Shown in pieces: positions 7,654-47,955 of a DNA stretch of 64,000 nt. The notes beneath the pieces are model-generated. The model worked only from the letters and a program-made list of their open reading frames with translations, searched no databases and was not told where the DNA came from. This DNA comes from a virus (Duplodnaviria > Heunggongvirae > Uroviricota > Caudoviricetes). The stretch lies in IMG/VR virus record IMGVR_UViG_3300036768_001066. The stretch is one strand, 5' to 3'. A program made the position numbers and the translations under genes. Positions within the stretch are counted from its first letter, which is position 1; every line of letters starts with the position of its first letter.

Positions 7654-7682
7654 GTTCCGGAGAAATCCGGAACTTTTTTTTC
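7654..7682 (+). terminator. rho-independent terminator (gttccgga-gaaa-tccggaac plus T9)
   Basis: 8-bp perfect stem, GAAA loop, nine consecutive T; directly after stop of 6847..7632. Confidence 0.8.
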
Positions 7683-7711
7683 TGCGCGGTATAATAAGTA
7701 AATTTTACAAT

Positions 7712-21186: not shown

Positions 21187-21480
21187 ATGAAACATCTAAA
21201 ACTATACGAAAGTTTCAATGAGAAACCAATCATGGTGTTCGATCGTACTCTGTACAGAGAACCGACTGAAGAGGAGCTTAGCGCGTTTGAGGACCATCCG
21301 AGTATTTCCAAGGAGGATGTCCTGAGCAATTTTCATTACATCTCGGTAGGCAAGGGCATATTCACCAAGGACAAGAAGGACCAGATAGTATCATGGATAG
21401 GCAAGCTCTGCAGACTATACCCCGACAATAATACGTACAAGGAGGCATTGGAACTTGCAAAGACAGAAACTACAAGATAA
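21187..21480 (+). CDS. small protein with the shared N-terminal leader (MKHLKLYESFNEK)
   Basis: ATG at 21187 in frame with track ORF 21169..21480. Confidence 0.55.
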   Translation: MKHLKLYESFNEKPIMVFDRTLYREPTEEELSAFEDHPSISKEDVLSNFHYISVGKGIFTKDKKDQIVSWIGKLCRLYPDNNTYKEALELAKTETTR

Positions 21481-22112
21481 TGGGGGGATATGCGATACAA
21501 GGTGTTAGAAAGATAACTGGTGACGAGGCACGCCAGACACTCTCTCCATTAAAGAGGTTCCTCGATCACTCGAAGGTCGAGACGGTCATGCTAATAGGAT
21601 CAGCGTGGCACCGGGAGGAGGGACTGTCCGGCGACCTGGATCTTGGTGTGAGAGTCGATCCGAAGCAGGACTTTACATGGGTCATGAGCGCCAAGCTTGG
21701 CAAGACCGTCCAGGGCAAGGCGATGCCGGGAATATCAGTGTACAGCTTCGGATTCCCGATATGTGGCAAGGCGATCAACGGGATGGTGCAGGTAGACCTC
21801 ATACCGGTGTACTACCCAGAATGGTCCAAATTCGTGTACGCGAAGGTGACCGGCAAGGCGAAGAGCGCACACAGGAACTGGTTGCTGTGTGCGCTCGCCA
21901 AGAGCAGGGGCGTCAAGTTCGACCTCAACAAGGGCGCAATGAAGGCGGAGAGCGTATGGTCGTCGTCGGTTGAGATAACGTCGGATCCCGACGAGTTCCT
22001 CAAGTGGCTCGGGATAACCAGGGCGGATGCGGACAGCTACGAGACCCTTTCTCAGGTAGTCCCGCAAGAGGTGCTGTATGAAGCCAACGAGAAATTGGCC
22101 GCGGTCAAGTGA
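21480..22112 (+). CDS. nucleotidyltransferase-fold protein (Pol-beta superfamily minimal NTase)
   Basis: IGSAWHREEGLSGDLDLGVRV matches hG[GS]-x9-13-D-h-[DE]-h. Start overlaps the upstream stop (TAATG). Confidence 0.5.
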   Translation: MGGYAIQGVRKITGDEARQTLSPLKRFLDHSKVETVMLIGSAWHREEGLSGDLDLGVRVDPKQDFTWVMSAKLGKTVQGKAMPGISVYSFGFPICGKAINGMVQVDLIPVYYPEWSKFVYAKVTGKAKSAHRNWLLCALAKSRGVKFDLNKGAMKAESVWSSSVEITSDPDEFLKWLGITRADADSYETLSQVVPQEVLYEANEKLAAVK

Positions 22113-22121
22113 TATATAAAG
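22111..22121 (+). promoter_or_regulatory. GATATATAAAG motif instance
   Basis: 18 nt upstream of ATG 22139. Confidence 0.4.
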
Positions 22122-22138
22122 AAACCAACCGAAAATAA

Positions 22139-22489
22139 ATGGAAAAGAAAGAATTCGACAGACTCCGTTTCGTCACACAGATGAACGAGATGATGCACAT
22201 CATCAAGACCAATCCGCTCAAGTCGCAACAGGATGCAGCCAGGATTGCGCTCCAGGCGATACAGGAGCAGTACAAGGAGAGGTTCGGCGAGTACTCGCAG
22301 AACCACATTGTTGCCGAAGGAATTGTGAAGGACGATGCTCCGGAGCTCGATGCCATAGTGGAAGAAATTGGCAAGATCGTGGAGACCGAGATAAACTCGA
22401 GGGTCGGCAAGGTCGGCAAGAGCGAGGTTAAGTACAAGGCGCAGTACGTCCTCGAAGAATTGATAAAGCTACTGCAGGCATCGGTCTAA
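22139..22489 (+). CDS. hypothetical protein
   Basis: 116-aa ORF. Confidence 0.5.
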   Translation: MEKKEFDRLRFVTQMNEMMHIIKTNPLKSQQDAARIALQAIQEQYKERFGEYSQNHIVAEGIVKDDAPELDAIVEEIGKIVETEINSRVGKVGKSEVKYKAQYVLEELIKLLQASV

Positions 22490-22923
22490 TGAAGTACATC
22501 AAGGACATAAACGAATCGATACAGCTCAATGGGAGCGGACCCACCAATATTACCGTGGCCGTTCGCAGACGTTCTCCGCAGAATCCACTCGGGCTGAATA
22601 ATTATTATATGATGTCCGGGCAGTTGGAACCGATACGAGACGACTACTACCAGACAGTGAGGGACGCTTGTTTCAACATTGGTATGGACTTCTTGTCAAT
22701 ATCTGAGAAGAACTTCACCATGCTCGACAGGCTAAAGGAGGTCATCGACAAGGTTGTCAACGAGAGGCAGGACGAGTTCGACCTGATAGTCTTCAACTGC
22801 AAGAACAGGAACTTCAGGACGCAGTATTGCGCCGAGACCGTGTTCCACACTATAGTTCAGGGCAGGTTAAATGCGCTCGCAGAGAGGCCGTTTGCAATGG
22901 GTGGACTCCAGCCACAACAATAA
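22489..22923 (+). CDS. hypothetical protein with the leader-like N-terminus (MKYIKDINESIQ)
   Basis: Start overlaps the previous stop (TAATG). First 8 codons are nearly identical at DNA level to the SprT-like gene start. Confidence 0.55.
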   Translation: MKYIKDINESIQLNGSGPTNITVAVRRRSPQNPLGLNNYYMMSGQLEPIRDDYYQTVRDACFNIGMDFLSISEKNFTMLDRLKEVIDKVVNERQDEFDLIVFNCKNRNFRTQYCAETVFHTIVQGRLNALAERPFAMGGLQPQQ

Positions 22924-23043
22924 ATGAGACACATCAAGATATTGGACCAAGGCTGTTAACCGAATCCGAACATGATGGCATAAAATATCATGTGGATAAG
23001 GGCGACGGTGTGCTAAACGTACGCATTTGGAAATCCAAATAAC

Positions 23044-23496
23044 TTACTGGTTATGCTTATTTAAGCGGTTCATCTCTCTATCCGCCTCGCGGTTCTTTAT
23101 CGTCTCGCGCTTGTCGTGGAGCTTCTTGCCCTTGGCAACGGCTATACCGAGCTTGCAGATTCCCCTCTGGTTGAGGTACATCGACTTCACCACCACGGTA
23201 GTGCCCTTTATGAGCTTGCCGGCAATCCTCTTTATTTCGGTCTTGTTCAGCAGTAACTTCCTAACTCTCAATGGGTCGTGGTTGTCCGCGGCATCCTGGA
23301 GCGGGTCCACCCGCATCCCCTTGATGAACACCTCGCCCCCGTCTATGTAGGCGTACGCCTCGTTTATGCTCGCGTGGCCCTGGCGTATAGACTTGATTTC
23401 CGTGCCCACCAGCATGATGCCGGCCTCGTACTCCTCTATGAATTCGTACTCGAACTTCGCCTTGCGGTTCTCGAATCGTATGTTGTTGTCTGCCAT
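23044..23496 (-). CDS. smpB: SsrA-binding protein SmpB
   Basis: Full-length alignment by eye to bacterial SmpB (FENRKAKFEYEFIEEYEAGIMLVGTEIKSIRQGHASINEAYAYI...). The C-terminal tail KKLHDKRETIKNREADREMNRL is the canonical SmpB tail. It is a lone minus-strand gene in a plus-strand block. Confidence 0.88.
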   Translation of the reverse strand: MADNNIRFENRKAKFEYEFIEEYEAGIMLVGTEIKSIRQGHASINEAYAYIDGGEVFIKGMRVDPLQDAADNHDPLRVRKLLLNKTEIKRIAGKLIKGTTVVVKSMYLNQRGICKLGIAVAKGKKLHDKRETIKNREADREMNRLNKHNQ

Positions 23497-23524
23497 AATT
23501 GGTACGAAGATAATAAAAATCTGT

Positions 23525-23538
23525 GATATATAAAAAAA
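23525..23538 (+). promoter_or_regulatory. GATATATAAAAAAAC motif instance
   Basis: 15 nt upstream of ATG 23553. The palindromic ATATATA core may also serve the divergent smpB. Confidence 0.4.
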
Positions 23539-23552
23539 CTACTTCCGACAGG

Positions 23553-23870
23553 ATGAAAAGACTTAAGACATTCGAGAGCTTCATCGTGGAGAACTTCGCC
23601 GATCCATACCCGGAAAAGACGGGCGGATCAGGCAACACGTACTATCTGTATATGTTCGACAGCAGCACCGAGGGGTTCTCCGGCGAGGTCAGGGACGGCG
23701 ACGGCAAGTGTGTGTTCACGATAACACCCAAGATACTCGAGGACGGCGGAATGTCCACACCCGACGACGTCACCGGACTCAGGAAGTACCTGATAGAGAA
23801 GAAAAAGAAGCTGTCGGAGACGGACGTTATCGAGATAGCGCAATCAGCCCCGGTACAAACAACCGACTAA
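23553..23870 (+). CDS. small protein with the shared N-terminal leader (MKRLKTFESFIVEN)
   Basis: ATG at 23553 in frame with track ORF 23523..23870. Confidence 0.55.
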   Translation: MKRLKTFESFIVENFADPYPEKTGGSGNTYYLYMFDSSTEGFSGEVRDGDGKCVFTITPKILEDGGMSTPDDVTGLRKYLIEKKKKLSETDVIEIAQSAPVQTTD

Positions 23871-23873
23871 ATA

Positions 23874-24296
23874 ATGGACAAGATGAACAAAAAGGTTATG
23901 AGATTCAACGAGTGGCTCGACGAGAACGAACTCGTCGACCAGGGCCTCGCGGGCGCGGGCGGCGAACAAACGCAGACGGCCGAAATCCCGGGTGCCGAAG
24001 CCGTAGCTGCTGCAGCACCGCGGGAGGAAATACCAGGTGGACTCGCATCGGGCAAGACCGCTGCCGACGTGGCGTCAAAGCACAACGTCTCTGTGGAGGA
24101 GGTAAACGTCCAGCTCGAAAGGGGCAAGAAGGTTGAGCTCGAGCACACAGACGACGAGAAGGTCGCGTGCGAGATAGCGCTCGACCACCTGATGGAAGAT
24201 CCTAAGTACTACGACAAGCTCGCGGCCATCGAGGATGAGCCAAAGGAACCAGCTGACGAGATCAAGGGCAAGAAAGCCGAAAATACAGAGGAGTAA
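23874..24296 (+). CDS. acidic hypothetical protein (C-terminal ...EHTDDEKVACEIALDHLMEDPKYY)
   Basis: 140-aa ORF. Possible internal start at MRFNEWLDENE, which has a weak resemblance to the leader. Confidence 0.5.
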   Translation: MDKMNKKVMRFNEWLDENELVDQGLAGAGGEQTQTAEIPGAEAVAAAAPREEIPGGLASGKTAADVASKHNVSVEEVNVQLERGKKVELEHTDDEKVACEIALDHLMEDPKYYDKLAAIEDEPKEPADEIKGKKAENTEE

Positions 24297-24472
24297 CATT
24301 ATTACATGGATTATCTAAAGGCATATAACAATCTTATCGAGACTCGGGAGAACAGAATTCTTATGGATGATGTTTACTATGAGTCTCACCATATTGTTAT
24401 GCGCTCAATGAGTGGCTCAGATGATCAAGATAACTTAGTTGCTCGAAAGTGGAAAAATAATATATCAGTATA

Positions 24473-24835
24473 ATGAGGGATCTTTACATGAGGGATCCTG
24501 CCACGGATCCGAATTACAAAGAAGGCATCCTCGAAATAAGTGACGAAATGGAGGCCTTGATCGCGGAAATTAAAATGATGTTGTATACCAACCGCGGTGA
24601 GGTGCTCGGCGCGCCTGACTTTGGCGCCAACCTCGAGGAGATGCTCTTCACCTTCGGTCTGAACGAGTACTCGCTGAGGCAAATGCTGAGGGACCAGACA
24701 CTCAAGTTCATACCGAGGTCCGTAAACTACAGCGTCGACTTCGACGTAAAGTTCGCAAGGGGCACGGTCAGGGACATGTGCCTGATAGACATATACATAA
24801 ACAACAGGCCGGCGTTCGGCGTGCTGATAAAATAA
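24473..24835 (+). CDS. baseplate wedge protein, gp25 / GPW-like
   Basis: MMLYTNRGEVLGAPDFGANLEEMLFTF matches the gp25/GPW core (i..iL.T..GER...P.FG..l..llF). Size 120 aa is typical. Confidence 0.6.
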   Translation: MRDLYMRDPATDPNYKEGILEISDEMEALIAEIKMMLYTNRGEVLGAPDFGANLEEMLFTFGLNEYSLRQMLRDQTLKFIPRSVNYSVDFDVKFARGTVRDMCLIDIYINNRPAFGVLIK

Positions 24836-24856
24836 TCCAGCGCAACTTACAAATAA

Positions 24857-25792
24857 ATGAAGAAACTGAAGGACATATCAGAATTCGGGGGGCCTGGTGA
24901 GACCGCGCTCGACGCTGCTTTGAAAGCACCGAACGGCAAGAAGTCCTCCCTGCCCGCGAATTTGCACGCGATGGTCCGTACGCCGGAGTTCAAGACCTGG
25001 TTCGGTGACTGGGAGAACGACCCGGAGAACTCGAGCAAGGTTGTGGACAAGAACGGCGAGCCCATGGTCGTGTACCACGGAACTCCGTCATTTGGATTCA
25101 AGGAGTTCATGAATGACTACAAGATGGCAAGGGCGACTGACAACGAGACGAACGACCTCGGCATCTGGTTCACGAACGACCTGCGCGTGGCAAAGGAATT
25201 CATGTTCAATTCGTCTAAGGGTGGCATCTACGAGGTGTTCCTAAACATGAGGAACCCCAAGGTATTCAAGCCGGCTCTGTTCAACCAATCAGAGATAGAC
25301 GCACTGGAGCAGACAATACACGACTTGAACGTGGACAAGGTCTCACTCGGCTGGTCAGTCAACGATATGACGCCAGACAAGCGCGAGAAGTTCTACAAGA
25401 TAGAGAGGCAGATGAAGGACCTGCACGACCAGATCAGGCTGCTGAAGCACACGGATTCATTCGAGCAGTTCATGAACTACAGGGACAAATACACAGAATA
25501 CATAAACGGTCAGAAGGGGAAGCCTGGCGCATGGCTCGAGAGGTACATCAACACTAACAAGAAGGAGGCAAACCTTAAGCTATTGAAGGAGCTGACCGAC
25601 AGCCAGCACGACGGTTTTGCCATAGTAGATACCCGGTACGACGCACCGAGTAAGAACTCCAGGGTGAGCCAGTACTGCGTATTCGACTCGAAGAACATAA
25701 AGAGCGTCGACAACAACGGCAGGTTCGACCCGGGGACGAGTAATATATACGAGGGAATTCACATAAAAAGCATAGACAGCTTCGATATATAA
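24857..25792 (+). CDS. ADP-ribosyltransferase-fold protein, H-Y-E (PARP/Tpt1-KptA-like) type, paralog A; carries the leader (MKKLKDISEFGG)
   Basis: VVYHGTPSFGFKEF (H-G-T motif, compare KptA LYHGT and PARP HGS) followed by DLGIWFTNDLRVAKEF (compare PARP GKGIYFAD) and a GGIYEVF candidate catalytic Glu. Shares this core with 31351..32211 and 35536..36165. Confidence 0.5.
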   Translation: MKKLKDISEFGGPGETALDAALKAPNGKKSSLPANLHAMVRTPEFKTWFGDWENDPENSSKVVDKNGEPMVVYHGTPSFGFKEFMNDYKMARATDNETNDLGIWFTNDLRVAKEFMFNSSKGGIYEVFLNMRNPKVFKPALFNQSEIDALEQTIHDLNVDKVSLGWSVNDMTPDKREKFYKIERQMKDLHDQIRLLKHTDSFEQFMNYRDKYTEYINGQKGKPGAWLERYINTNKKEANLKLLKELTDSQHDGFAIVDTRYDAPSKNSRVSQYCVFDSKNIKSVDNNGRFDPGTSNIYEGIHIKSIDSFDI

Positions 25793-25812
25793 ATCAAACA
25801 AACCCGTTCAAT

Positions 25813-26313
25813 ATGGATAACAACAACGTAAAAAAGAGAAAGACCATGTCCTTCGAGGAGTTCCTCAAGAACAAGGTAAAGATTGAGAAGGGCGACCAGG
25901 TTGTGGACGATCACTACTCAAACACGCTTGACGAGCCTAAGAAGATAAAGATCGTCAAGGAAAGCAAAGGCTGGAAGGAAGTGGCCGGACCTAACGTTGG
26001 CTCATTTTACAAGACCCAGGAAGAGCTCAACCAGTACAAGACCAAGATGATCGGTGAGGGATACGAGATGGACCTCGACGTTGGTGACATCGCGGAGGAG
26101 CACGCTAAGGCAATCATAGCCGAGGCGTTCGAGATGTCAAAGGCCAGCGACAGGGATGGGGGAATAAATGGAACGATATTGCAGGAGGCGTTCGACAAGA
26201 TCTGCACCGACAACGGCATCGATGACATGGAGGACGATCGTCGCGAGATGATAGTTGATGCAATCCAGTCCATCCTCAAAGAACTATCAGGACAAGCAAC
26301 AAGGCTCAAGTAA
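25813..26313 (+). CDS. acidic hypothetical protein
   Basis: 166-aa ORF. Possible internal start MSFEEFLKNK, a weak leader resemblance. Confidence 0.5.
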   Translation: MDNNNVKKRKTMSFEEFLKNKVKIEKGDQVVDDHYSNTLDEPKKIKIVKESKGWKEVAGPNVGSFYKTQEELNQYKTKMIGEGYEMDLDVGDIAEEHAKAIIAEAFEMSKASDRDGGINGTILQEAFDKICTDNGIDDMEDDRREMIVDAIQSILKELSGQATRLK

Positions 26314-26685
26314 ATGCGCAAGATCAAGGACATATCCGATTTCGAACTGAACGAGTCGCTTATATCCAGGTTCATCACTGTCGATCCGCAGGACATCAAG
26401 TTCGTGGAAGATGCTAAGGTGGCAGACTTTGGGGACAAGGATACGCCGGTCAGGAAGGCCATACTCAATGCTGCGTATTCGCTTTACTCGCACTTCGACA
26501 AGGAGCGCGATAAGTCTAAGTTCATCCAGAAGGTGCTCGGCATGGACCAGGAGGGCAAGGGGAAGGTTCTGAACTCTACCAAAGCGTACGTCGCGAGCCT
26601 CAAGAAGATCCAGAAGATCGAGACCGACGAGATAAGCCCGAACCAGGAGGGACTCGACGCGGTCCTCGAACAAAAACCAGAATAA
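26314..26685 (+). CDS. small protein with the shared N-terminal leader (MRKIKDISDFELNE)
   Basis: Start overlaps the previous stop (TAAATG). Confidence 0.55.
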   Translation: MRKIKDISDFELNESLISRFITVDPQDIKFVEDAKVADFGDKDTPVRKAILNAAYSLYSHFDKERDKSKFIQKVLGMDQEGKGKVLNSTKAYVASLKKIQKIETDEISPNQEGLDAVLEQKPE

Positions 26686-26815
26686 CAATGAAACACACCT
26701 GAGGGGCATAGTCGCGGCAGCAAAGGCCGTGGTAGATTACGTGGAAGCCAAGAAGGGCGAGTACACAAAAAACGACACCGCAGATAGCCGCTAAATAAGA
26801 GTAAATTTTGAAGTT

Positions 26816-26850
26816 AAAAAGCCCGCCCATTTAAACGGCGGGCTTTTTTA
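26816..26850 (+). terminator. rho-independent terminator (gcccgcc-catttaaac-ggcgggc plus T6)
   Basis: GC-rich 7-bp stem with flanking A and T runs; may act in both directions. Confidence 0.75.
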
Positions 26851-26855
26851 TTAGT

Positions 26856-26865
26856 GATATATAAG
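26856..26865 (+). promoter_or_regulatory. GATATATAAG motif instance
   Basis: Directly after the terminator, 20 nt upstream of ATG 26886. Confidence 0.45.
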
Positions 26866-26885
26866 AAAATAGAACCGCATTTAGG

Positions 26886-28616
26886 ATGGCAGAGCAACCA
26901 AGCATATTCAAGAAGAACCGACTCGCGATAGAACTGCTCATCGAGGACTCGATAAACTTCACCGTCGACAAGTTCCGCCAGAGCAGGACCAACTTCACGG
27001 TAGCATCCGCTTATGGCCAGATAATCTTTGTCCTGCACAACCTGGCGCAGATGATACTGTACTACATTGAGGACTCCATAACCGAGCTAAACATTAACAC
27101 GGCTACCAGGGCCAACTCGGTCACCGGTCTTGCGCGTCTCGCCGGGCACAACTCTACGAGGGCGATCTCTGCCGTCGGCGAGATCGGTCTCTCGATAAAG
27201 GCCGGGGCGGACATAGACATACCGGGGGGCACCGTCATACTGCCGAACTGGACCAAGATAAAGTGTGTGAACAACGGCCAGACATACATGCTCGACCTAC
27301 CTGGCGACGAGGTGCGCATACCTCTGGACGGGTCGAAGAACGGCACGCCAGTGAACATAATCCAGGGCCTGCTCGAATCGCAGAGCACTACCGGTACGGG
27401 CAAGCCATTACAGTCGTTCTCTCCCAACTTCAACCAGACAGTGCTCGTTGAACACTATCGTGTCAACGTGTACGTCAACGGGGAGAAGTGGAAGCTGTAC
27501 GACTCAATGTACGACATGCCGCGCGAGGCTAAAGGATGCCTTGTCAAGACTGGCATAAATTCCGGTATAGACGTTATATTCGGCAACGGTCACTTCGGCA
27601 AGATGCCTGAGCTCGGCGCCGAGATACTCGTCGAGTACGTGGTGTCATCCGGTCTCAACGGTAACCTCGTGCTCGCCACAGACGAGGAGGCCGTGTACAA
27701 GTGGGACGACGTAGGGTACAATCTGTACGGTGAGGAGCTCGACCTAAACGAACTTCTGACAGTCAGGAGTATCAACGCACCGGACTTTGGGTCCAACCCG
27801 GAGCTGCTCGAGCTCACCAGGCTCATAGCGCCGAAGACTTCCAGGTCGTACACGCTCGCTAACGAGGACCACTGCATCGTGTTCCTCGAGAAGTTCAACC
27901 AGTTCTCCATCATAGACGCGTACACCACGCCGAATGATGCGGACCTGACCGACGACAAGATAATCTACCTGTTCCTCGTGCCAGACGTCAAGAAGAAGCT
28001 GAAGTCTAACGAGAACTACTTCAACATAGACGAGTCGAGGTTCACACTCAACGACTTCCAGAAGGAGAAGGTGCTGACGTTGTTTGAGAGATCCGGGCAG
28101 AAGATAGTGAGCACCGAGCTGCAGATAGTGGACCCCAAGATAAGCAGGTTCGTCATAAACATAGCGCTGATAGTTTTTGACGACATCCCGCAGGATATAA
28201 TAAAGCAGGACGTCATAGAGAAGCTGAGCGACTACTTCTTGAACATCAGGCGAAGGGACCGTATCCCGCGCTCCGACCTCATCTCAATATTGGAGAACAT
28301 ACCGGGGATAGACTCGGTCAACATCTCGATAGTGTCAGAGATAGACGAGCGCCAGTATCAGCTTTCGCTGACGTCGGGAAGGAGCTCGACCGCCAACTTG
28401 GAGCCGCCTCGCATTGACGAGTTCGGCGACATACTCATACAGCCGGGCGAGCTCGCCATAGTGCGCGGAGGATGGACCGACAGGAGAGGCATAACATACG
28501 AGAAGGACGTAGACGACGAGGTACCGAGCTCGGTTAACATCGTCATCAAGAAGGTCATACCGAAGACGTACAACACGGGGGTAAACCAGAACACCAAATC
28601 TAATCTTAGAGGATAA
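26886..28616 (+). CDS. baseplate J-like (gp6/gpJ family) protein
   Basis: 576 aa. N-terminal ...FTVDKFRQSRTNFTVASAYGQ and C-terminal ...RRDRIPRSDLISILENIPGIDSVNISIV resemble conserved ends of the Baseplate_J family. Lies next to the gp25-like gene. Confidence 0.5.
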   Translation: MAEQPSIFKKNRLAIELLIEDSINFTVDKFRQSRTNFTVASAYGQIIFVLHNLAQMILYYIEDSITELNINTATRANSVTGLARLAGHNSTRAISAVGEIGLSIKAGADIDIPGGTVILPNWTKIKCVNNGQTYMLDLPGDEVRIPLDGSKNGTPVNIIQGLLESQSTTGTGKPLQSFSPNFNQTVLVEHYRVNVYVNGEKWKLYDSMYDMPREAKGCLVKTGINSGIDVIFGNGHFGKMPELGAEILVEYVVSSGLNGNLVLATDEEAVYKWDDVGYNLYGEELDLNELLTVRSINAPDFGSNPELLELTRLIAPKTSRSYTLANEDHCIVFLEKFNQFSIIDAYTTPNDADLTDDKIIYLFLVPDVKKKLKSNENYFNIDESRFTLNDFQKEKVLTLFERSGQKIVSTELQIVDPKISRFVINIALIVFDDIPQDIIKQDVIEKLSDYFLNIRRRDRIPRSDLISILENIPGIDSVNISIVSEIDERQYQLSLTSGRSSTANLEPPRIDEFGDILIQPGELAIVRGGWTDRRGITYEKDVDDEVPSSVNIVIKKVIPKTYNTGVNQNTKSNLRG

Positions 28617-29167
28617 TGAGATTTCTAAAGACATACGCCGGGCTCTTTGAGAGCGAGAATAGTGAGAAGAAGCTCGCGTGCGCGCTCGTATCATTCGACG
28701 TGCCACTTCTCAAGACGCTGCACTCTGCCATAGACAAGGAGGACCTCGACGAGAAAGGATTCGAGGATGAGCCGCACGTAACGCTGCTGTTCGGCCTTCA
28801 CCAGGACGAGGTCACGGCGGAACAAGCCTTCGCGTGCATGCGCAATTGCATGGGCGAGGACGGCTGCGGCGACATAACGCTCGGGCCCGTTTCAGTATTC
28901 TCCAACGACAAGTTCGACGTGCTAAAGTTCGATGCCATCGGGGATTGGCTGCATGCCACTAACAGAGAGCTGAAGGAACTGCCACACACAAACGAGTATC
29001 CAGACTACAAACCTCACTGCACGCTCGCATACCTGAAGCCAGGGCTCGGGCAGAAGTACGTTGCGCTTTTTAACGGTCTATTGTACAAAGTGAAGCCGAA
29101 AGAGTTTATATACTCAGACGCCGACAGGAACCAAACAAAAATGCCGATAGTACAAAATGCCGCTTAA
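28616..29167 (+). CDS. 2H phosphoesterase (LigT / 2'-5' RNA ligase / cyclic phosphodiesterase-like); carries the leader (MRFLKTYAGLFESEN)
   Basis: Two H-x-T-x motifs at the expected spacing: PHVTLLFG and PHCTLAYL. Confidence 0.65.
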   Translation: MRFLKTYAGLFESENSEKKLACALVSFDVPLLKTLHSAIDKEDLDEKGFEDEPHVTLLFGLHQDEVTAEQAFACMRNCMGEDGCGDITLGPVSVFSNDKFDVLKFDAIGDWLHATNRELKELPHTNEYPDYKPHCTLAYLKPGLGQKYVALFNGLLYKVKPKEFIYSDADRNQTKMPIVQNAA

Positions 29168-29402: not shown

Positions 29403-30256
29403 TGAGGCACCTCACCGCATACAATCTGTTCGAGATGAACGCCAATCCATACATGTGGAAGTGGACGACCATCCCTGCTACCACCAATAGGGTCGCGACG
29501 TTCAATTCGGATGACGACAGATACTTCGTCGAGTTCATGTCGAGCGGGTACGACAACACGTACAAGGTGACGTTCGAGTCCGATAAGTACGGAGTCAACG
29601 CCACCGGGTTCGGTAATGCCGACAACGCTATGAGAGTGCTCGCAACGGTTCTCGATATTGTTATTGCGTTTCTCGATGAGAATGCGGAGTACGAGGTGGA
29701 GTACGAGGTGGAGTTCATAGGTGTCAAGGACGATGATGACAACGGACCTTCTAAGAGGGACCGCATATACAAGATGATGATAAAGGATTTACCAGACACA
29801 TATAAATGGGAACTGATGGGAGATAAGAAAACAATACACATAAGCAGGCAGCTTGTGTACGAATCGGAGAATAAAAAGTCGGTGGTCACATTCGACTTTG
29901 ATGGTGTGCTCCATACTGGGATCTACCCTGGTACAATACACCCTCTGCCGAGTCCGGAACTGTGGACTCCGAATGACGAGATGATTGACAAGATGCGCGA
30001 GGAGGCAAAGACTCACACGATATACATAGTCACTGCCAGAGATTCTATGCCGAACGGCGGGCCAAACCCATGGGTTAAACAATTCGTAAAAGAGAATAAC
30101 CTCCCAGTGGATGGAATTATATGCACCAATGATAGGCCGAAGAGACCGTTCCTTGAGAAGCTCGGTTCTATAAGACACTATGACGACAACCCATCGATGA
30201 AAGCGGAGATGACGGGATCTGACATAGAGTTCGTGTTCGTAGATACAAATAAATAA
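29402..30256 (+). CDS. HAD-superfamily phosphatase with an N-terminal extra domain; carries the leader (MRHLTAYNLFEMN)
   Basis: C-terminal half has HAD motif I VVTFDFDGVLHTG, later IYIVTARDS and an ICTNDRPKR region. Start overlaps the previous stop (TAATG). Confidence 0.6.
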   Translation: MRHLTAYNLFEMNANPYMWKWTTIPATTNRVATFNSDDDRYFVEFMSSGYDNTYKVTFESDKYGVNATGFGNADNAMRVLATVLDIVIAFLDENAEYEVEYEVEFIGVKDDDDNGPSKRDRIYKMMIKDLPDTYKWELMGDKKTIHISRQLVYESENKKSVVTFDFDGVLHTGIYPGTIHPLPSPELWTPNDEMIDKMREEAKTHTIYIVTARDSMPNGGPNPWVKQFVKENNLPVDGIICTNDRPKRPFLEKLGSIRHYDDNPSMKAEMTGSDIEFVFVDTNK

Positions 30257-30259
30257 ACA

Positions 30260-31354
30260 ATGAGACACCTAATAAACTTCAGACTATTCGAGGCCGAACA
30301 AAAGGACGGCCCAGTTATATTATATCTGCACGGACTTGATTCCAATCCAGGCGATAAGGGGGAATGGCTCGCGTCGCATTTCAGCAATGTGATTATGCCA
30401 CATGTGGATTATAGGAGGGAAGGATCCACCATATTCAACCAAATAATAAATCTTTTAAAAGGTAAGGAAGTATCATTGATAATAGGCAACTCGATGGGCG
30501 GGTTCCTCGCGTTTTGGCTGTGCAGAAAGCTGAACGTTCCAGGCATATTATTCAACCCGGCTTTGCATAAGCAATCGACCGATGTGCAAGTGGACCGAAC
30601 AGCAAGCGCCACCCCGACTATGACTGTTATACTCGGCAAGAAGGATACATGGATAGACCCCAATATTACGAAGAAGTGGCTCGCCGATAATTACAGCGGG
30701 AACACTGAGATAATAATGGACGATCTCGAGCACCGTATTTCTCGCGAAGAATTCCAGAAACACGTGCTGCAGCTCGTTAAGATGGACGAGAAGTCTGGCG
30801 AGATACTCGATCCGAAGAGAAACCAGTGGGTGGAGATAAATCCAAAGGAACACCCGGAACTTTCTAAGGAGTTCTTCGATCTAATATCGACAGCGTACTC
30901 AGAAATAGGTGGTCATGCAAAAATCAAAAAGCCAGAGGACGTCTTTGCCGACAAGGATTGGAACTTCTGGAGCGGAGTCGATATTCATGGAAGCCCCGAC
31001 CTCGATCTAATTGTGTTCGGACAGAAGACAAAATACGGTATAAAATTCTCCGGAGTCGGACACGACGGACAGAAGGACACGAAGAAAGTGTATCTTGAGC
31101 ATAAGGCTAAAGATTTATCTAAGATAGGTTACTACAGTGAGGTGTCCGGCAAGCTCGCGCAGATATTGATAAACAAGTATCACATCAACGTCATCAACGA
31201 CAAGGACGAGATAAAAAAGTTGATGCCAGGTAAAGATATAATGTTCTATGGCAAACATCCTACGGACCCAGATATGCTAGGCGACGGATGGTACGGTCGC
31301 GATATAGGCGGAAAAGAACACATAAAACTAATGGTGGGAAAACCAAAGATATGA
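30260..31354 (+). CDS. alpha/beta-hydrolase (YqiA-like esterase) fused to an unknown C-terminal domain; carries the leader (MRHLINFRLFEAEQ)
   Basis: VILYLHGLDSNPGDKG ... GNSMGGFLAF (GxSxG nucleophile elbow) ... typical of the YqiA/UPF0227 esterase family. Confidence 0.6.
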   Translation: MRHLINFRLFEAEQKDGPVILYLHGLDSNPGDKGEWLASHFSNVIMPHVDYRREGSTIFNQIINLLKGKEVSLIIGNSMGGFLAFWLCRKLNVPGILFNPALHKQSTDVQVDRTASATPTMTVILGKKDTWIDPNITKKWLADNYSGNTEIIMDDLEHRISREEFQKHVLQLVKMDEKSGEILDPKRNQWVEINPKEHPELSKEFFDLISTAYSEIGGHAKIKKPEDVFADKDWNFWSGVDIHGSPDLDLIVFGQKTKYGIKFSGVGHDGQKDTKKVYLEHKAKDLSKIGYYSEVSGKLAQILINKYHINVINDKDEIKKLMPGKDIMFYGKHPTDPDMLGDGWYGRDIGGKEHIKLMVGKPKI

Positions 31355-32211
31355 AGCACATAAAAACTTATAGCTTATTTGAGTCCGAGAATACCGATGG
31401 TTCTGTTTGGTATCATGGTACCGACAGTAAGTTTGACAAGTTTGATATGTCAAAAACTAAGAGCGGCCCATCGGCTTTCGGTATTTGGTTTGCTGATGAT
31501 GCAGAGCTTGCCAAGATGTTCGGAGAGAACATCATGAAATGCAAGCTGACTTACGAGAATCCGAAAGTTATAACTATGGACGAGTGGGACGCAATACGAA
31601 TGGAGCACACCAAGGATACCGAGTTTTTCAAAAATTGGAAGGCCAAGCTAATATCACAGGGATACGACGCGCTGTTCATCAAAGAACGTTTACAGAAGTT
31701 CGACGGTCACACGGTACGCGACGGTAACATGGTTGCAGTGTTCGATCAAGATGATGCAGAGATAATGAACGAGAATGTCAACGAGAATTTTACGAAGGCC
31801 GGACTCGGGAGCATGATACTAATGACCGGGGAGAAACAACCGGATGGGACGACCAGGCTCTACGCGATACCGATACAGAGAGTATTATCATACGGTAGGA
31901 AAAAAGCAGACAATACCGATGCACAGGATGCCAACATGGTTCTGCTTGGCGATGATTATTATAGGCTGACAATACAAGACGGTAAGATCAAGCCACAAAA
32001 GGTCGGGTTCAGTAGCAAGCCGAATATGCTCAAAGCGCTCGGAATGAGTGAGAAGAATCTATCCGGCGAACGGTTGAAAATCGTGCTGAACTCTAAGACG
32101 GGCAAGACACCTTTACACTGGCGTGCGCTCACTTACAGTTCCATGGGCAAGATGCTGTCAGAAATGGGCAAGGAAATAATGGAACTACCGAACATAAAGT
32201 GGTATAATTAA
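31351..32211 (+). CDS. ADP-ribosyltransferase-fold protein (H-Y-E / Tpt1-KptA-like), paralog B; carries the leader (MKHIKTYSLFESEN)
   Basis: SVWYHGTDSKFDKFD ... FGIWFADDAELAKMF ... LTYENPKV parallels paralog A. ATG at 31351 overlaps the upstream stop (ATGA). Confidence 0.5.
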   Translation: MKHIKTYSLFESENTDGSVWYHGTDSKFDKFDMSKTKSGPSAFGIWFADDAELAKMFGENIMKCKLTYENPKVITMDEWDAIRMEHTKDTEFFKNWKAKLISQGYDALFIKERLQKFDGHTVRDGNMVAVFDQDDAEIMNENVNENFTKAGLGSMILMTGEKQPDGTTRLYAIPIQRVLSYGRKKADNTDAQDANMVLLGDDYYRLTIQDGKIKPQKVGFSSKPNMLKALGMSEKNLSGERLKIVLNSKTGKTPLHWRALTYSSMGKMLSEMGKEIMELPNIKWYN

Positions 32212-32227
32212 GCAAGGATTATAATAC

Positions 32228-35200
32228 ATGTCATATAAGCACCTGAAATTTTACGATAAGACCGGCAATAACCTGAACTTCTCCTTCAACGAGGAGACCG
32301 GATACTGGGAGGGCAATATGTACTTCTCCAAGGTGTCAATTGGCCTGTACGAAAACGAACACATATTCATACTCGAGAACGTAATATACGGATCTCCTGG
32401 AGCAGACACGCTCACATTCCCAGTACTGGGTCAACAGACATCCCCGACACAGGAAGTTTGGCGTGCGAGGTGGGAGACCAACGATGCTGAGGCCAACATA
32501 TTCCAGTTTCAGGTCACCGAGGAAGACGGTGTTCCATACATTACGAGGTACGAGACCATAGACTACGGCAACCCAGCAGTAGCGTACACGGAGATAAGTC
32601 CTGATGAGCAGAAGATAGTGGTGAGCATCAACTCCGAGCCACTAAAGATAAACCTCGGATTCACGTCACCAGACGAGGACATATACGACCGTACGCTCAT
32701 CATCGAGGACATGTCGTTCCCTACGCCGAGGATAGTCGCGAAGATAGCCCTACAGGGCGAGACCGTCGGCGAGGACGACCGATTGAGATTGATGCTCGAG
32801 AACTTCGGTCGCAAGCTCACGCACAGCGACGCGATAATGCTTCGCGATTACGACATAAAAGAGGCGCTCCCGGACTACCAGATGCTGAACGAGAAGCGTA
32901 AGGAGATGTTCGTCGCGGGAGAGGACATATTCCCGTACATGGGCGCGTACAAGGGTCTCATCAACATAGTGAGGTTCTTCGGCTACCAGGACATGCGCAT
33001 CAAGGAGTACTGGCTGAATGTGGACGAGAGCTCAGAGAACTACGGTAAAGTATTGCAGATGCAGATAGATCAGCTGTTCAACGAGACGAACAAGCCGCTG
33101 TTAAAGCACCCGCTAATACCGAGCAAGACATACAGGAAGACCGGCAATTTCGGTCTGTTCTATGACATAACGGTGGAGACCGGAGAGGTGGACCAGTTCG
33201 GAATACCGGGGACACAAAACGCATTCATGTTCTCTAACGAGGAGGTGCTCTTGAAGCTTTTCGCTCTCAAAGAGAAACTCAAGCGCGAGTACGTACCGCT
33301 TAACGCGAGGATAGTCGACATAGTCGGCGAGGGTATCTACTTTGAAAGGTACGGCACCAGAAGCTGGACCGACGAGCTCAAGGTCATACCGCAGAAAGTC
33401 GGCGCCGATATAGAATTCGAGGCGGACCCGCAGGTGGGTTACATCCGCGACATCCGCAGGTTCATGACCACGAGGTTCAGTCCAGGACTCGACCTGCCAG
33501 TCGACAATTACGACAACCTCGTGAACCCGTACAGTACGGGCCAGCACTATCCGCCGTACGCCGTGCCAGGGCTGTTAGAATCCATAACCGAATTCTACGA
33601 CGAGCTCAAGAAATTCCCGTGGCCGTACAGAGACGAGAAGGACAAGTACATAGAGGACGAGCCGGGCGTAGTCGCAGGCTGTCCCGTCATTCTAAAGGGC
33701 AAGATCTCCCAATTCACGTGGGATGACCTGGACATCGCATGGGACGATACTGATGTCAATACTTTCACCTGGGATACGATAGACTTCTCCATGTTCTACG
33801 AGATAGAGTGGATAATAGAGAAATTCGGGGACAGGCCTTATTACTTCTCTATAAGGGGTAGGATACAGGACTACTACAACCTCCCACACTTTCTGCCGTA
33901 CACAGGCAAGTACAGGGTCACTATGAACATGTACGACATGTTCAACGCAAAGTCAGTAGAGATAAAGAACGAATACATAGAAGTCCTCGCAAGGGAGCTG
34001 CAGATTGCAGCATTCGCAAGATGGAGAAACTTCCCAGTATACCAGTGGGACAGCACCACAGACACCTGGGACGACCTCGCCGGTTCTACGTGGGAGTTTC
34101 CTATAGAGGGCATCAGCCTTTACAATTCACCCGTGCACGAACAGCTGATAAACTGGAAGCGCTACAGGAACCAAGAGGACGCGCAGATACTAAGTCCGTA
34201 CACCGGCAACTACGCGGACCTCAACGTCGTCATAGCGGAGAGCGAGGAGAAAGACAACCCGGCGAGAAGGTTCGGTACCACATACGCGCTCAGGTGGATG
34301 AACATGGACGTGTCATGGGACGAGCTGTACCACTCGACGTGGGACATGATGGACTACCACGGCGACTTCCTCGGCGGATTCAAGATATACAACCCGCAGA
34401 TCGGAGACCAGATAAGGATAGACGATTATCCTTGGTTCACGTTTGTGGATCAGTCGCCATCGATAGCGCCGCTCGATCTGTTCGAGGCGGTTGCGCAGCT
34501 ACAGGCGTCCACAAATCCAGGATTGATGAAGTTCGACTTCCACGTGTTCGAGGGGCCAGCATCACCTCCGTACATCAAGGCGAGCGCCAAGGCGAGCGGG
34601 GCGGACGGTTGGCACTTCGTCGACTATATGCAGGCGTCGTCACCTGGCGGCATCGTGGGAGACCCATACAGCTGGACGTATCCTACGTGGCTCGTGCAGC
34701 AGAACGACTTGACGAATTTACTCGCGACTTACCCGTCTATAGATCCTAACATGCTGTTCCTCGACACGCCTTTGCAGGACCTGATAAGTAATGCGTCGAG
34801 CAGCTATGCGTACTGGCAGGCAAAGGGATTTGTGAAGACCGAGCCGCTCGGTCCAGAATACCCTACTCCATGGGCACAGCACCGTGGGCACCTACCGTCT
34901 TGGGCTGGATCACAGTCATTCAGCAACAACGACCTCAGAGTATTCAAGGACGATTTCGAGGTCCCACTTGGCGTGCCTGTGTTCTTCATCCACAACCACT
35001 CCGAGATACCTGGAAAAGACAACACCAGGTGGGTCATCATCAACGAGGCCACCGGCGAGACCGTCATAGACGTAAAGCACGAGAACTTGATATTCAACTT
35101 CATCGAAGAGTCGACATATTCTATAGAATGCTGGGTAGACGATACGCATGGCAACCCCGCGCACGTGCTGCGCAAGGGATACGTGAAAGCGTCCGGATAC

Positions 35201-35236
35201 AAAACATTCGGCAAAACTCCATTAGACCTCAAATAA
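32228..35236 (+). CDS. large (1002 aa) probable virion structural protein (baseplate or fibre)
   Basis: Uninterrupted 3-kb ORF rich in W/Y/D with phage codon usage, between baseplate genes and further structural ORFs. Confidence 0.65.
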   Translation: MSYKHLKFYDKTGNNLNFSFNEETGYWEGNMYFSKVSIGLYENEHIFILENVIYGSPGADTLTFPVLGQQTSPTQEVWRARWETNDAEANIFQFQVTEEDGVPYITRYETIDYGNPAVAYTEISPDEQKIVVSINSEPLKINLGFTSPDEDIYDRTLIIEDMSFPTPRIVAKIALQGETVGEDDRLRLMLENFGRKLTHSDAIMLRDYDIKEALPDYQMLNEKRKEMFVAGEDIFPYMGAYKGLINIVRFFGYQDMRIKEYWLNVDESSENYGKVLQMQIDQLFNETNKPLLKHPLIPSKTYRKTGNFGLFYDITVETGEVDQFGIPGTQNAFMFSNEEVLLKLFALKEKLKREYVPLNARIVDIVGEGIYFERYGTRSWTDELKVIPQKVGADIEFEADPQVGYIRDIRRFMTTRFSPGLDLPVDNYDNLVNPYSTGQHYPPYAVPGLLESITEFYDELKKFPWPYRDEKDKYIEDEPGVVAGCPVILKGKISQFTWDDLDIAWDDTDVNTFTWDTIDFSMFYEIEWIIEKFGDRPYYFSIRGRIQDYYNLPHFLPYTGKYRVTMNMYDMFNAKSVEIKNEYIEVLARELQIAAFARWRNFPVYQWDSTTDTWDDLAGSTWEFPIEGISLYNSPVHEQLINWKRYRNQEDAQILSPYTGNYADLNVVIAESEEKDNPARRFGTTYALRWMNMDVSWDELYHSTWDMMDYHGDFLGGFKIYNPQIGDQIRIDDYPWFTFVDQSPSIAPLDLFEAVAQLQASTNPGLMKFDFHVFEGPASPPYIKASAKASGADGWHFVDYMQASSPGGIVGDPYSWTYPTWLVQQNDLTNLLATYPSIDPNMLFLDTPLQDLISNASSSYAYWQAKGFVKTEPLGPEYPTPWAQHRGHLPSWAGSQSFSNNDLRVFKDDFEVPLGVPVFFIHNHSEIPGKDNTRWVIINEATGETVIDVKHENLIFNFIEESTYSIECWVDDTHGNPAHVLRKGYVKASGYKTFGKTPLDLK

Positions 35237-35249
35237 AAACTAAACAGTT

Positions 35250-35535
35250 ATGAAGAAGCTGTTATCACTATTCGCTGCGATTATGATGTCACTGTCGCTT
35301 TTCGCGCAAGATCCATGCGGTTCAAAAATAACGGCGGTTCAGAAAAACAAGGTCAACAAGGAGGTCGATAGGTTCCTCGAGAACGAGGCTTCGGGCGCAT
35401 CTATAAACGGTCCGTTCAGGAAGAAGGTCGTAAGAATACCAGTCGTGTATCACGTGCTCTACACGGATTATCTCGACTGCAACGACTCCTTACTTAAGAA
35501 GCAAATATGGATTACACGGATTACACGGACAATAA
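35250..35535 (+). pseudogene. truncated 5' fragment of a secreted zinc metalloprotease-like gene (signal peptide plus VVRIPVVYHVLYTD)
   Basis: Signal peptide MKKLLSLFAAIMMSLSLFAQDPCG, then a reprolysin/M43-like N-terminal motif. The frame degrades after about 90 aa, where a tandem 9-mer gattacacg x2 sits at 35509-35527, and runs into the next gene. Confidence 0.35.
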
Positions 35536-36165
35536 GTGCATGTAAAAAAGATTTCTCGACAACAAATGATAAGCAAGAAACTCATAGACGGATTGTGGTA
35601 TCACGGGGACAGGCAGAAGCTTGACACCTTCGTCGGCCGTTACCTCGACGCCGAAGACTATTCCCGCGACAGGAACGCGATGGGACCCGGCATATACTGG
35701 AGCAGGCTCAAGTGGCAGGCGTCTGGTTATGCAGAGGGAAGCTACGGATCGGACCCAGGCTGGATATACACCGCAACCATGGAGCTCGATCCGGAACGCG
35801 TGCTCGACAAGAAGACTAAACCGGACGAGGCTAAGCTCAGGAAGTTCATAGACCTGTATCCGGACAAAGAGGAGCTCGAGATGAACCTGCAGAATTACGC
35901 GCAGGACATCGATATGGCGAAGGAGATGGCAGTAGAGGCCGCCATGGACAACGACAACATGCTCGACGCGGCGCTCGGGCTGTACAACGACCTGTATGGC
36001 AGAGACTCGAAGGAATTCGGAAAATCGATGACGGCCATAGGATACGACGCATATCTGCATAAGCTGCCGCAGGTGTACCACCTTGTGGTGTACAACCCTG
36101 AGATAATAAAGATAAAAAAGGTAGAGAAGAAGCTGAAGCATCTCAAGGGACGCGACGATATATAA
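35536..36165 (+). CDS. ADP-ribosyltransferase-fold protein, paralog C (no leader)
   Basis: GLWYHGDRQKLDTF ... MGPGIYWSRLKW parallels paralogs A and B. GTG 35536 or ATG 35566 as start. Confidence 0.45.
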   Translation: MHVKKISRQQMISKKLIDGLWYHGDRQKLDTFVGRYLDAEDYSRDRNAMGPGIYWSRLKWQASGYAEGSYGSDPGWIYTATMELDPERVLDKKTKPDEAKLRKFIDLYPDKEELEMNLQNYAQDIDMAKEMAVEAAMDNDNMLDAALGLYNDLYGRDSKEFGKSMTAIGYDAYLHKLPQVYHLVVYNPEIIKIKKVEKKLKHLKGRDDI

Positions 36166-36167
36166 AG
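36157..36167 (+). promoter_or_regulatory. GATATATAAAG motif instance
   Basis: Overlaps the stop of 35536..36165, 20 nt upstream of the phoH-like ATG 36187. Confidence 0.4.
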
Positions 36168-36186
36168 CATAACCAACTTAAACATA

Positions 36187-36969
36187 ATGGGTTTATCCAA
36201 AGAGAGCAAAGACCGCATCAAGAAGAACGGCAAGAAGAAGCTGTCCAACTACGAAATGCAGGAAGCATACGACGACGCGAAGGTGGTACAAGAGTTCACT
36301 CACTTCAAAAAGGTGGTTCTTTCGCCGAAGCAGCAGGACTTGTACAAGGGTATATCGAAAAGCGTAATCACAACCATCACCGGTCCCCCGGGAACGTCGA
36401 AGACATTCACTGCATGTTATGCAGCGGTCGAGGCTCTGCGCAAGGGTGAGATAAAGAAGATCTACCTGGTGAAGCCGCTCGAAACTTCCGGAGAGGAAAC
36501 TGGATTCCTACCTGGCGACCTCGACGAAAAGGTAGCACCGTTTGTAGCATCGTTCCTCGACAACCTCAACGAGATGATGGAGCCCAAGGACCTTAAGTCC
36601 GCTATGTTCTCCAAGGTAATAGAATTCGTTCCTATCGCGTTCATGCGCGGCCGTACGCTTAAGGACTGCTACATCATTGCCGATGAGCTCCAGAACTGCG
36701 ACGTGAAGCAGCTGCTCACACTCGTAACGAGGATGGGCAAGAACACCAAGATGATGCTCATAGGAGACCAGCACCAGAACGACATCAACAAGAGGTACGT
36801 TGCGTTCGACTTCTTCATAGAGAAGATCCTCGGCGAGGACGAACTCGTATTCAACTTCAAGTTCACAAGGGAAGACATCGTGCGTCACCCGCTGCTCATA
36901 AAGATAGTGGACAACTACGAGAAGGCGCAGGCGGAAGGATCCCTGCCCGACACAAAGAACAAGAATTAA
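36187..36969 (+). CDS. phoH: PhoH-like ATPase
   Basis: ITGPPGTSKTF Walker A, IIADELQN Walker B-like, MLIGDQHQNDI, and overall PhoH family length and order. Confidence 0.85.
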   Translation: MGLSKESKDRIKKNGKKKLSNYEMQEAYDDAKVVQEFTHFKKVVLSPKQQDLYKGISKSVITTITGPPGTSKTFTACYAAVEALRKGEIKKIYLVKPLETSGEETGFLPGDLDEKVAPFVASFLDNLNEMMEPKDLKSAMFSKVIEFVPIAFMRGRTLKDCYIIADELQNCDVKQLLTLVTRMGKNTKMMLIGDQHQNDINKRYVAFDFFIEKILGEDELVFNFKFTREDIVRHPLLIKIVDNYEKAQAEGSLPDTKNKN

Positions 36970-47948: not shown

Positions 47949-47955
47949 CGAATAG

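Follow-up and report, generated by a model that had tools for sequence, protein, structure and literature searches.

How is a phage locus to be understood in which a 2H phosphoesterase, several ADP-ribosyltransferases (ARTs), a HAD-like phosphatase, an alpha/beta-hydrolase and a putative nucleotidyltransferase (NTase) lie scattered among baseplate genes? The locus occupies positions 21187-36969 of a 64,000-nucleotide stretch of Caudoviricetes DNA (IMG/VR record IMGVR_UViG_3300036768_001066), here called the window, and readable sequence extended ~10 kb beyond it on each side, i.e. over ~84 kb of a contig of ~374 kb. A preliminary description had taken genes of this region for a possible RNA end-healing and sealing pathway, delivered with the virion and perhaps directed against host anticodon nucleases or RNA-targeting immunity. 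The explanation that we find best, with a probability of roughly 0.6, is a hypervariable locus of effector enzymes that would be packaged in the capsid and injected into the host for takeover and counter-defence. In the best-supported model, this cargo locus is embedded in the late structural module for neck and baseplate morphogenesis.

The principal evidence is a shared N-terminal leader. A peptide some 12 residues long, M[KR]x[LI]Kx[YF]xxFE(xE), starts 7-10 of the genes in 21187-32211, interleaved with baseplate genes. When the strict form of this pattern was used as a regular expression, seven open reading frames (ORFs) were retrieved from the 64 kb, all of them within 21187-32211, all on the plus strand and all with the match at the start of the gene. 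Leaders were located at 21187, 23553, 24857, 26314, 28616, 29402, 30260 and 31351, and the proteins behind them are unrelated in fold, comprising 2H, ART, HAD-like and alpha/beta-hydrolase proteins as well as small unknowns. The leader codons of different window genes share 36-67% DNA identity, and this low value indicates that selection acts on the peptide. In both of the AF2 models (the 2H protein and the first ART) the leader has low pLDDT and lies outside the fold.

Relatives of the locus were collected by scanning IMG/VR for homologues of the 2H protein, which gave 265 matches, and 80 loci were kept. These harbor 94 leader ORFs (61 unique proteins), where 0.35 would be expected from shuffled N-termini, with up to 11 leader ORFs in a related locus. 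The consensus of the 61 unique proteins is MKHIKLFEEFLNE (M-K-H-I-K-L-F-E-E-F-L-N-E). An alignment of 34 2H homologues shows E12 to be invariant, and each of the 60 2H homologues examined has, before the fold, a short N-terminal peptide with a [LIVMF]-x-E motif. The 2H homologue of Maribacter phage Molly, surrounded by small early-type genes, has no leader, so that the leader behaves as a modular and separable add-on. The assortment of leader-bearing proteins is wider in the related loci, where a Pfam scan of 41 of them identified GNAT (n=3), Tad3 (n=2), ART-PolyVal (n=2) and DUF5824 (n=2) domains. Further leader-bearing proteins are nucleoside deoxyribosyltransferase-like, zeta-toxin/AAA_33 kinase, amine oxidase, ATP-grasp and Acb1 proteins. 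The Tad3 homologues, with a best E of 4.7e-21, belong to a family of phage inhibitors of the Thoeris TIR protein (PMC13402655, PMC13243611). A full-text search of the literature returned no paper with the leader strings KLFEEF, KLFEQF or KLYEEF.

The leader resembles the capsid-targeting sequence (CTS) of phage T4, MKTYQEFIAE (PMC8442874), in which mutational work has linked residues 4 and 7 to targeting and residues 8 and 10 to processing (PMC9026906). T4 residues Y4, F7, I8 and E10 map with identical spacing to the four best-conserved positions of the leader, i.e. F/Y7, F10, L/I/V11 and E13, while the leader is three residues longer at its N-terminal end (MKHIKL versus MKT). The likeness extends to the internal proteins of T4 (IPI, IPII, IPIII), in which a short N-terminal peptide is likewise common to unrelated proteins and the CTS has the core aromatic-x-x-Phe-[Ile/Leu]-x-Glu, with spacing identical to that of the leader. 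The internal proteins of T-even phages have been described as diverse defence proteins with only the CTS in common (PMC3012670), and an anti-defence role has been proposed for those of T4 (PMC3012670, PMC9026906). Their loci vary in gene content among close relatives, as does the locus described here. They differ in being small and basic, whereas the cargo here consists mostly of enzymes of 180-360 aa; moreover, the present phage is uncultivated, has a genome of ~374 kb and is only distantly T4-like. T4 gp21 cleaves after Glu in I/L-x-E, reported sites being ITE-6 and LTE-619 of Alt, a packaged ART of T4 (PMC5694885). We regard the leader as a homologue or analogue of the T4 CTS, and the targeting peptide is probably homologous.

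The competing explanation that survives best, which we nevertheless consider unlikely, is that these are unpackaged accessory ('moron') genes whose enzymes act in the infected cell, the leader being a relic of common descent or of a cassette, or a signal for translation or localisation. A translation signal could be suspected from the fact that short Lys-rich N-termini can mirror translation-initiation preferences, but the conserved positions are aromatic, hydrophobic and Glu residues with T4 CTS spacing, and not only Lys codons. Common descent of the whole proteins is excluded by their unrelated folds (2H, ART, HAD, alpha/beta-hydrolase, NTase, GNAT and Tad3), and the low DNA identity of the leaders argues against recent recombination of a cassette. 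The known Acb1 and Tad proteins are expressed after infection and are not known to be packaged, which favors accessory genes, as do the existence of a leaderless 2H homologue in Molly and the failure to find a prohead protease gene in the ~84 kb read. Conversely, the cluster is embedded in late structural modules, a location which speaks against this alternative and for preloaded cargo.

Turning to the enzymes themselves, the Acb1/LigT-like 2H phosphoesterase (28616-29167, plus strand; leader MRFLKTYAGLFESE) was identified by Pfam, motifs and a structural model. PHVTL begins at 28772 and PHCTL at 29012, and the residues of the two HxT motifs, H54, T56, H134 and T136, are invariant across the 34 aligned homologues. 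The protein scores 27.7 bits against Pfam 2_5_RNA_ligase2 (cutoff 27) and 26.1 bits against Pfam Acb1 (PF23474), the latter under the cutoff of 27. Foldseek searches with the AF2 model (pLDDT 89, low in residues 1-18) matched Usb1, plant CPDase, LigT, Acb1 and VP3/viral 2'-5' phosphodiesterases about equally well (E 2e-6 to 1e-4), scores that do not separate Acb1 from the other 2H clades. The sole sequence matches in the PDB were to the anti-CBASS protein Acb1, at ~2e-3, both with the single sequence and with a 34-sequence profile. With two HxT motifs on a 2H fold, membership in the 2H superfamily, as asserted by the preliminary description, is solid. Acb1 (PDB 7t26, 9q2g) shares this fold with the window protein, together with both HxT motifs and YPDY[KR]PH[CI]TL[AS]Y, but differs in that no leader tag has been described for known Acb1 proteins, and the Pfam Acb1 score of the window protein is below cutoff. 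The enzyme likely hydrolyses cyclic-nucleotide or cyclic-phosphate molecules.

Two of the ARTs carry leaders. ART1 (24857-25792, plus strand), which contains a helical insert and begins with MKKLKDISEF, a variant of the leader, scores 71.3 bits against Pfam ART-PolyVal (PF18760; gathering threshold 31.2 bits), and ART2 (31351-32211, plus strand, scanned as 31288/31351-32211; leader MKHIKTYSLFESE) scores 41.6 bits and has a shuffled C-terminal domain. A third ART-like protein (35566-36165, plus strand), with the motif LWYHGD and no leader, matches phrog_25279 (2.5e-22) and reaches a sub-threshold 16.2 bits (E 0.019) against ART-PolyVal. All three had been described as Tpt1/KptA-like, of which the ART superfamily part stands and the Tpt1 part does not. 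None of them matched the Tpt1 profile (PTS_2-RNA), the Pfam scans giving ART-PolyVal only. Their catalytic His lies within VVYHGT, VWYHGT and LWYHGD with no preceding Arg, as read directly from the sequences and not from a Tpt1 alignment; the catalytic tetrad of Tpt1/KptA is Arg-His-Arg-Arg. In a fold search with the high-confidence AF2 model of ART1, the core aligned to PARP1, tankyrase and Arr, and no Tpt1/KptA structure was among the matches listed.

T4 Alt is an ART of the R-S-E type that modifies RNA polymerase (RNAP), and the window ARTs differ from it in being ART-PolyVal proteins whose motif is YHG and whose core is PARP-like. By analogy with Alt, they likely ADP-ribosylate host targets. 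The same ART domain family is found in the polyvalent proteins of phages and conjugative elements, from which Pfam ART-PolyVal originates, in P1 DarB and in crAss-like virion cargo, and arsenals of several enzymes that are packaged and injected are familiar, but unlike in the polyvalent proteins, the effectors here are split into separate leader-tagged genes and do not form one giant polypeptide. Among annotated phages, ART-PolyVal domains were found in giant crAss-like proteins that bear the label RNAP subunit or RNAP-associated, as well as in one named 'DarB-like antirestriction protein'. Both crAss-like giant RNAP-type proteins and DarB-like proteins are packaged, injected classes.

The C-terminal domain of ART2 is shared, according to an alignment, by the related proteins P0066 and P0069. 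This module of ~140 aa (31801-32211; GS..L..G....DG..RLYA.P ... LNSKTGKTPLHW) corresponds to no Pfam family and is joined to different N-terminal enzymes across phages, being located on an ART in the window and on a HAD-type protein in P0069. Near the third ART, a called 124-aa ORF (35250-35624) with a Bacteroidota-style signal/lipoprotein-like N-terminus, MKKLLSLFAAIMMSLSLFAQ, overlaps the start of the ART gene, and a similar signal peptide is present on a secreted Endonuclease_NS encoded in the cluster of the related locus L087.

The HAD-like phosphatase domain makes up the C-terminal half of a two-domain protein (29402-30256, plus strand), which begins with the leader MRHLTAYNLFE and a DUF6934-like N-terminal domain. 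DFDGVL starts at 29894 and is followed by the candidate motifs VTAR, KRP and YDDN, picked out by reading. Two PHROG families were matched, one named 'polynucleotide kinase' (6e-6) and the other 'phosphoheptose isomerase' (4e-6). Since no HAD match was obtained from Pfam at E<=1, and no relatives from the PDB, phage records or IMG/VR, the assignment rests on the motifs and these two PHROG matches. The HAD phosphatase of the preliminary description is to that extent retained, as a probable identity, with no Pfam or PDB match found to add to it. Directly downstream, a plus-strand gene at 30260-31354 with the leader MRHLINFRLFEAE encodes an alpha/beta-hydrolase of UPF0227/YqiA-like type (Pfam UPF0227, 7.2e-12) followed by a C-terminal domain of unknown function.

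The putative NTase (21480-22112, plus strand) has the signature GS...GDLDLG...VQVD of a Pol-beta fold, with GDLDLG at 21630, and in a family alignment of 30 sequences G40, S41, D52, D54 and D106 are invariant. All of its matches are sub-threshold, namely Pfam Polbeta (0.014), a PDB NTase (0.035) and a kanamycin NTase (0.057), so what holds of the nucleotidyltransferase first described is the motif and the invariant residues, which make a Pol-beta-type NTase probable. The only cultured-phage search results for the family were unannotated Lak megaphages. Many of the aligned homologues have an N-terminal leader that ends in hydrophobic-x-E and is immediately followed by an invariant GG. The window protein itself begins with MGG and has no leader of its own; its start is the position where the mature protein would begin in the leader-carrying homologues. 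The leader that precedes it, MKHLKLYESFNE, sits on a separate 97-aa ORF (21187-21480, plus strand), identified by the leader pattern and matching no Pfam or PHROG family, in a different frame and with its stop overlapping the NTase start by 1 nt. Possible origins of this arrangement are an insertion, a frameshift fusion or translational coupling.

The locus is hypervariable in its cargo, and domains are shuffled between the cargo proteins. This is seen in L087, in which the 2H protein is 80% identical to that of the window and a backbone of NTase, SmpB, a baseplate wedge protein and a 1002-aa protein is retained. The alpha/beta-hydrolase and the second ART domain are absent from it, while several extra plus-strand genes, mostly leader-bearing, are present, and the HAD-type protein is fused to the ART2 C-terminal domain. 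In P0069, the N-terminal part and HAD domain of the window protein are joined to that domain. The gp13-like neck gene and the cargo cluster have a DUF7487/homing-endonuclease-like gene (19982-20752) between them, and in the related locus L002 ORFs with homing-endonuclease-like N-termini, recognised by reading and with no domain match, are found between cargo genes. Such elements may contribute to the plasticity of the locus.

An RNA repair pathway along the lines of the preliminary description would use the same enzymes as successive steps: opening of 2',3'-cyclic phosphates would fall to the 2H enzyme, removal of phosphate to the HAD protein, Tpt1-type action on 2'-phosphate junctions to the ARTs and rebuilding of 3' ends to the NTase, with a ligase located elsewhere in the genome or provided by the host. 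We consider this distinctly improbable. Known RNA repair systems (T4 Pnk with Rnl1, Pnkp/Hen1 and the 'Swiss Army Knife' combination of HAD, 2H, kinase and ligase) do resemble the window in having a 2H and a small HAD-like domain and in their setting, the genome here being rich in tRNA and translation genes, with tRNAs, SmpB and a Thg1-like gene to the left of the window. LigT, CPDase and Usb1 are further matches of the 2H fold, 2_5_RNA_ligase2 is just over its cutoff, and the HAD-like domain has its match to the PHROG 'polynucleotide kinase' family. Unlike these systems, however, the window has no kinase, ligase or conserved linkage, its ARTs are PARP-like in their core and not Tpt1, and the only PDB sequence matches of its 2H protein are to Acb1.

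The lack of an RNA ligase or polynucleotide kinase in the window, already remarked on in the preliminary description, was confirmed and extended. RNA_lig_T4_1, RNA_ligase, RtcB and Pnk-kinase gave no Pfam match in the window proteins of at least ~140 aa and the called genes of the flanks (~20 kb), and an Rnl1 profile built from the related loci likewise found nothing in the window or flanks. KLDGN in the ORF at 7532-8443 was considered as a hidden ligase motif I and rejected as a chance occurrence, having no PDB, Pfam or PHROG support. Nor is the gene combination conserved, for among 84 loci with a 2H homologue a HAD neighbor was found once, an NTase once, a hydrolase twice, an ART2-like protein seven times and PhoH never. 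A link to RNA repair does surface in some relatives: in 8 of ~85 loci the 2H homologue has an Rnl1-type ligase no more than 10 kb away, accompanied in L086 by an AAA_33 kinase and by an aminoacyl-tRNA synthetase, and at a distance of 4 kb from the 2H gene of phage Molly lies a gene labelled 'HAD domain in Swiss Army Knife RNA repair proteins'.

As for the tRNA genes, they are present as described, but do not adjoin the gene set, the cluster (5182-6191; ARAGORN/Rfam) being located 15 kb upstream of the region; the putative repair genes are scattered among baseplate genes and share no operon with it. The 2H enzyme may still have some role on RNA ends, but the 2H-to-Tpt1 logic fails and no sealing activity is seen, and the pathway as a whole is not upheld. 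Most likely, the enzymes act independently, as an arsenal for takeover and counter-defence and not as consecutive steps of RNA repair. A general lesson is that, where a phage has 2H, ART and HAD genes together, one should check which ART family is involved and whether a ligase is present before assuming repair of the tRNA-splicing type.

Some further observations were made on the tRNA region. The tRNA-Asp at 5182-5259 was called by ARAGORN and is below the Rfam gathering score, while the tRNA at 6117-6191 (Rfam tRNA, 42.9 bits) was left by ARAGORN without an identity, with the four-base anticodon ttgc, and may have an 8-nt anticodon loop or a miscalled intron. Upstream of the cluster, ~5 kb left of the window start, is a Thg1-family gene (PF04446; L084 4536-5345) beside NUDIX and CoaE-like genes. 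Thg1-like proteins are 3'-5' nucleotidyltransferases that repair tRNA 5' ends, and this is the most RNA-repair-like gene seen in the genome.

The baseplate genes among which the leader-bearing genes are interleaved include a wedge subunit (26886-28616, plus strand; phrog_219, 7.4e-23), which has no leader and is conserved in L002, L003 and L087, and a possible gp25-like baseplate/sheath-initiator protein (24473-24835, plus strand), with a sub-cutoff match to Pfam Sheath_initiator (0.0074) and no pairwise similarity to T4 gp25. T4 has a comparable arrangement, its alt gene directly adjoining baseplate genes 48 and 54. Alt, an ART delivered with the DNA and trimmed at I-T-E by the prohead protease, is hence a precedent for a packaged ART encoded in a baseplate module, and it demonstrates that gene position does not show the virion compartment. 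That the leader might instead target the tail or baseplate, making these proteins tail-tip or baseplate effectors, would account for their location amid gp25-like, wedge and other tail genes, but is highly improbable given that the leader resembles a capsid-targeting peptide and that capsid-packaged Alt is itself encoded beside baseplate genes.

For the capsid-packaged cargo that we favor, the following course of events can be proposed. The cargo set, i.e. the two ART-PolyVal ARTs, the Acb1/LigT-like 2H enzyme, the HAD-like phosphatase, the alpha/beta-hydrolase and several small proteins, would be made late, alongside the structural proteins, and would be recruited into the prohead by the leader. 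There a prohead protease would cut the leader off after the hydrophobic-x-Glu motif, and the mature enzymes would be ejected together with the DNA, to act ahead of any phage gene expression. Virion delivery and counter-defence were already part of the preliminary description, and it is these parts of it that we retain, inferring them from the T4-CTS-like leader and the interleaving with baseplate genes.

Several points weigh against packaged cargo. Neither a gp21-type prohead protease nor a scaffold gene was seen in the ~84 kb read, and phmmer searches with T4 head, neck and tail proteins, including gp21, gave no match in the loci searched. Kinship with T4 comes from weak matches, with an E of 0.003 for gp13 and a gp25-like protein that lacks pairwise similarity. 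Both the third ART and the window copy of the NTase are leaderless, and the leaders of the window form a divergent dialect, often LFE.E and not F[LIV]xE, whose similarity to the T4 CTS is weaker than in the relatives. Finally, a motif of 10-13 residues could also serve expression or localisation, or act as a degron.

The remaining genes of the cluster are mostly small. Two ORFs with leaders and homologues in related loci are one of 105 aa (23553-23870, plus strand; leader MKRLKTFESFIVE, with a perfect aromatic-xx-F-I-x-E core; homologue in L087) and one of 123 aa (26314-26685, plus strand; leader MRKIKDISDFELNE; homologues in L002, L003 and L087). A DUF5661 protein (23874-24296, plus strand; Pfam 4.3e-15) has the variant leader MRFNEWLDENE from residue 9, and in several of its homologues DUF5661 is fused to ART-PolyVal. 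An ORF of 166 aa and unknown function (25813-26313, plus strand), conserved in L087, has an internal leader-like MSFEEFLKNK at residue 12. No leader is found in the 1002-aa backbone protein (32228-35236, plus strand; phrog_28177, 1.6e-21, unknown function), which has the same size and position in L087 and is probably virion-structural. The PhoH-like ATPase (36187-36969, plus strand; Pfam PhoH, 187 bits, 3.7e-55) and the SmpB homologue (23044-23496, minus strand; PF01668) lack leaders as well. Both had been correctly recognised in the preliminary description, SmpB lying within the region itself. PhoH probably has no connection with the cargo set. Within the plus-strand cluster, SmpB alone is encoded on the minus strand, and it is found in the same place in L087; no tmRNA gene was detected in the 64-kb window by ARAGORN/Rfam.

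With regard to its source, the window has a GC content of ~50% and is nearly all coding on the plus strand between 6 and 37 kb. Exact copies of window proteins are found on a 75.7-kb Logan contig, and one protein (P0065) has an exact copy on a 373,759-bp JGI contig. A megablast search of the region against 50,697 phage records gave no DNA match. For individual proteins, the closest phage records come from huge phages without annotation (LR745206, LR756508 and others), from Lak megaphages and from Maribacter phages, and on account of these nearest records the host is probably a member of Bacteroidota. The best reading of the source is a jumbo phage, with a contig of ~374 kb, distantly related to T4. 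This relatedness rests on profile matches for gp13, gp32 and the wedge protein: the T4 gp13-family neck protein is encoded at 19178-19909 (Pfam; phrog_211; pairwise E 0.003 to T4 gp13), and the gp32 gene lies directly beyond the right end of the window.

Outside the cargo region, the genes upstream of the neck gene include one for a SprT-like metalloprotease (15522-16073) and one for a protein that has an S1 RNA-binding domain at its C-terminus (16334-17431), and the minus strand encodes a tail protein (37300-39402). Three consecutive giant ORFs of 1162, 1810 and 1163 aa in 44460-56921 contain no Pfam domains and are probably tail-fibre or virion proteins; the first of them (1162 aa) matches phrog_29329, of unknown function, at 1e-151. 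ATP-grasp proteins are located on the minus strand at 43415-44380 and 60786-61766, one with a weak YheCD-like match and one with a solid match to the R2K clade.

Lastly, the leader MKxIKLFEEFxNE and its dialects may, as a tentative suggestion that goes further than the reading of this one locus, belong to a widespread and undescribed system of capsid preloading in uncultivated large and jumbo phages of Bacteroidota-type hosts. Its interchangeable cargo would include Acb1-like 2H enzymes, Tad3, PARP-like ARTs and Pol-beta NTases. If the leader is indeed a signal for capsid targeting, it provides a sequence rule that predicts the injected proteins of uncultivated large phages, and leader-carrying unknowns, of which there are at least five in the window, become candidate early-acting effectors, with the leader as a tag for mining anti-defence proteins from metagenomes. 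The known cargo would then widen from the small internal proteins of T-even phages to ARTs, 2H enzymes, phosphatases, hydrolases and nucleotidyltransferases. Counter-defence against CBASS, Thoeris or type III CRISPR-like signalling would arrive as protein at the moment of DNA entry, and the ready-made supply of anti-CBASS and anti-Thoeris homologues would change the expected timing of the arms race between these phages and their hosts.

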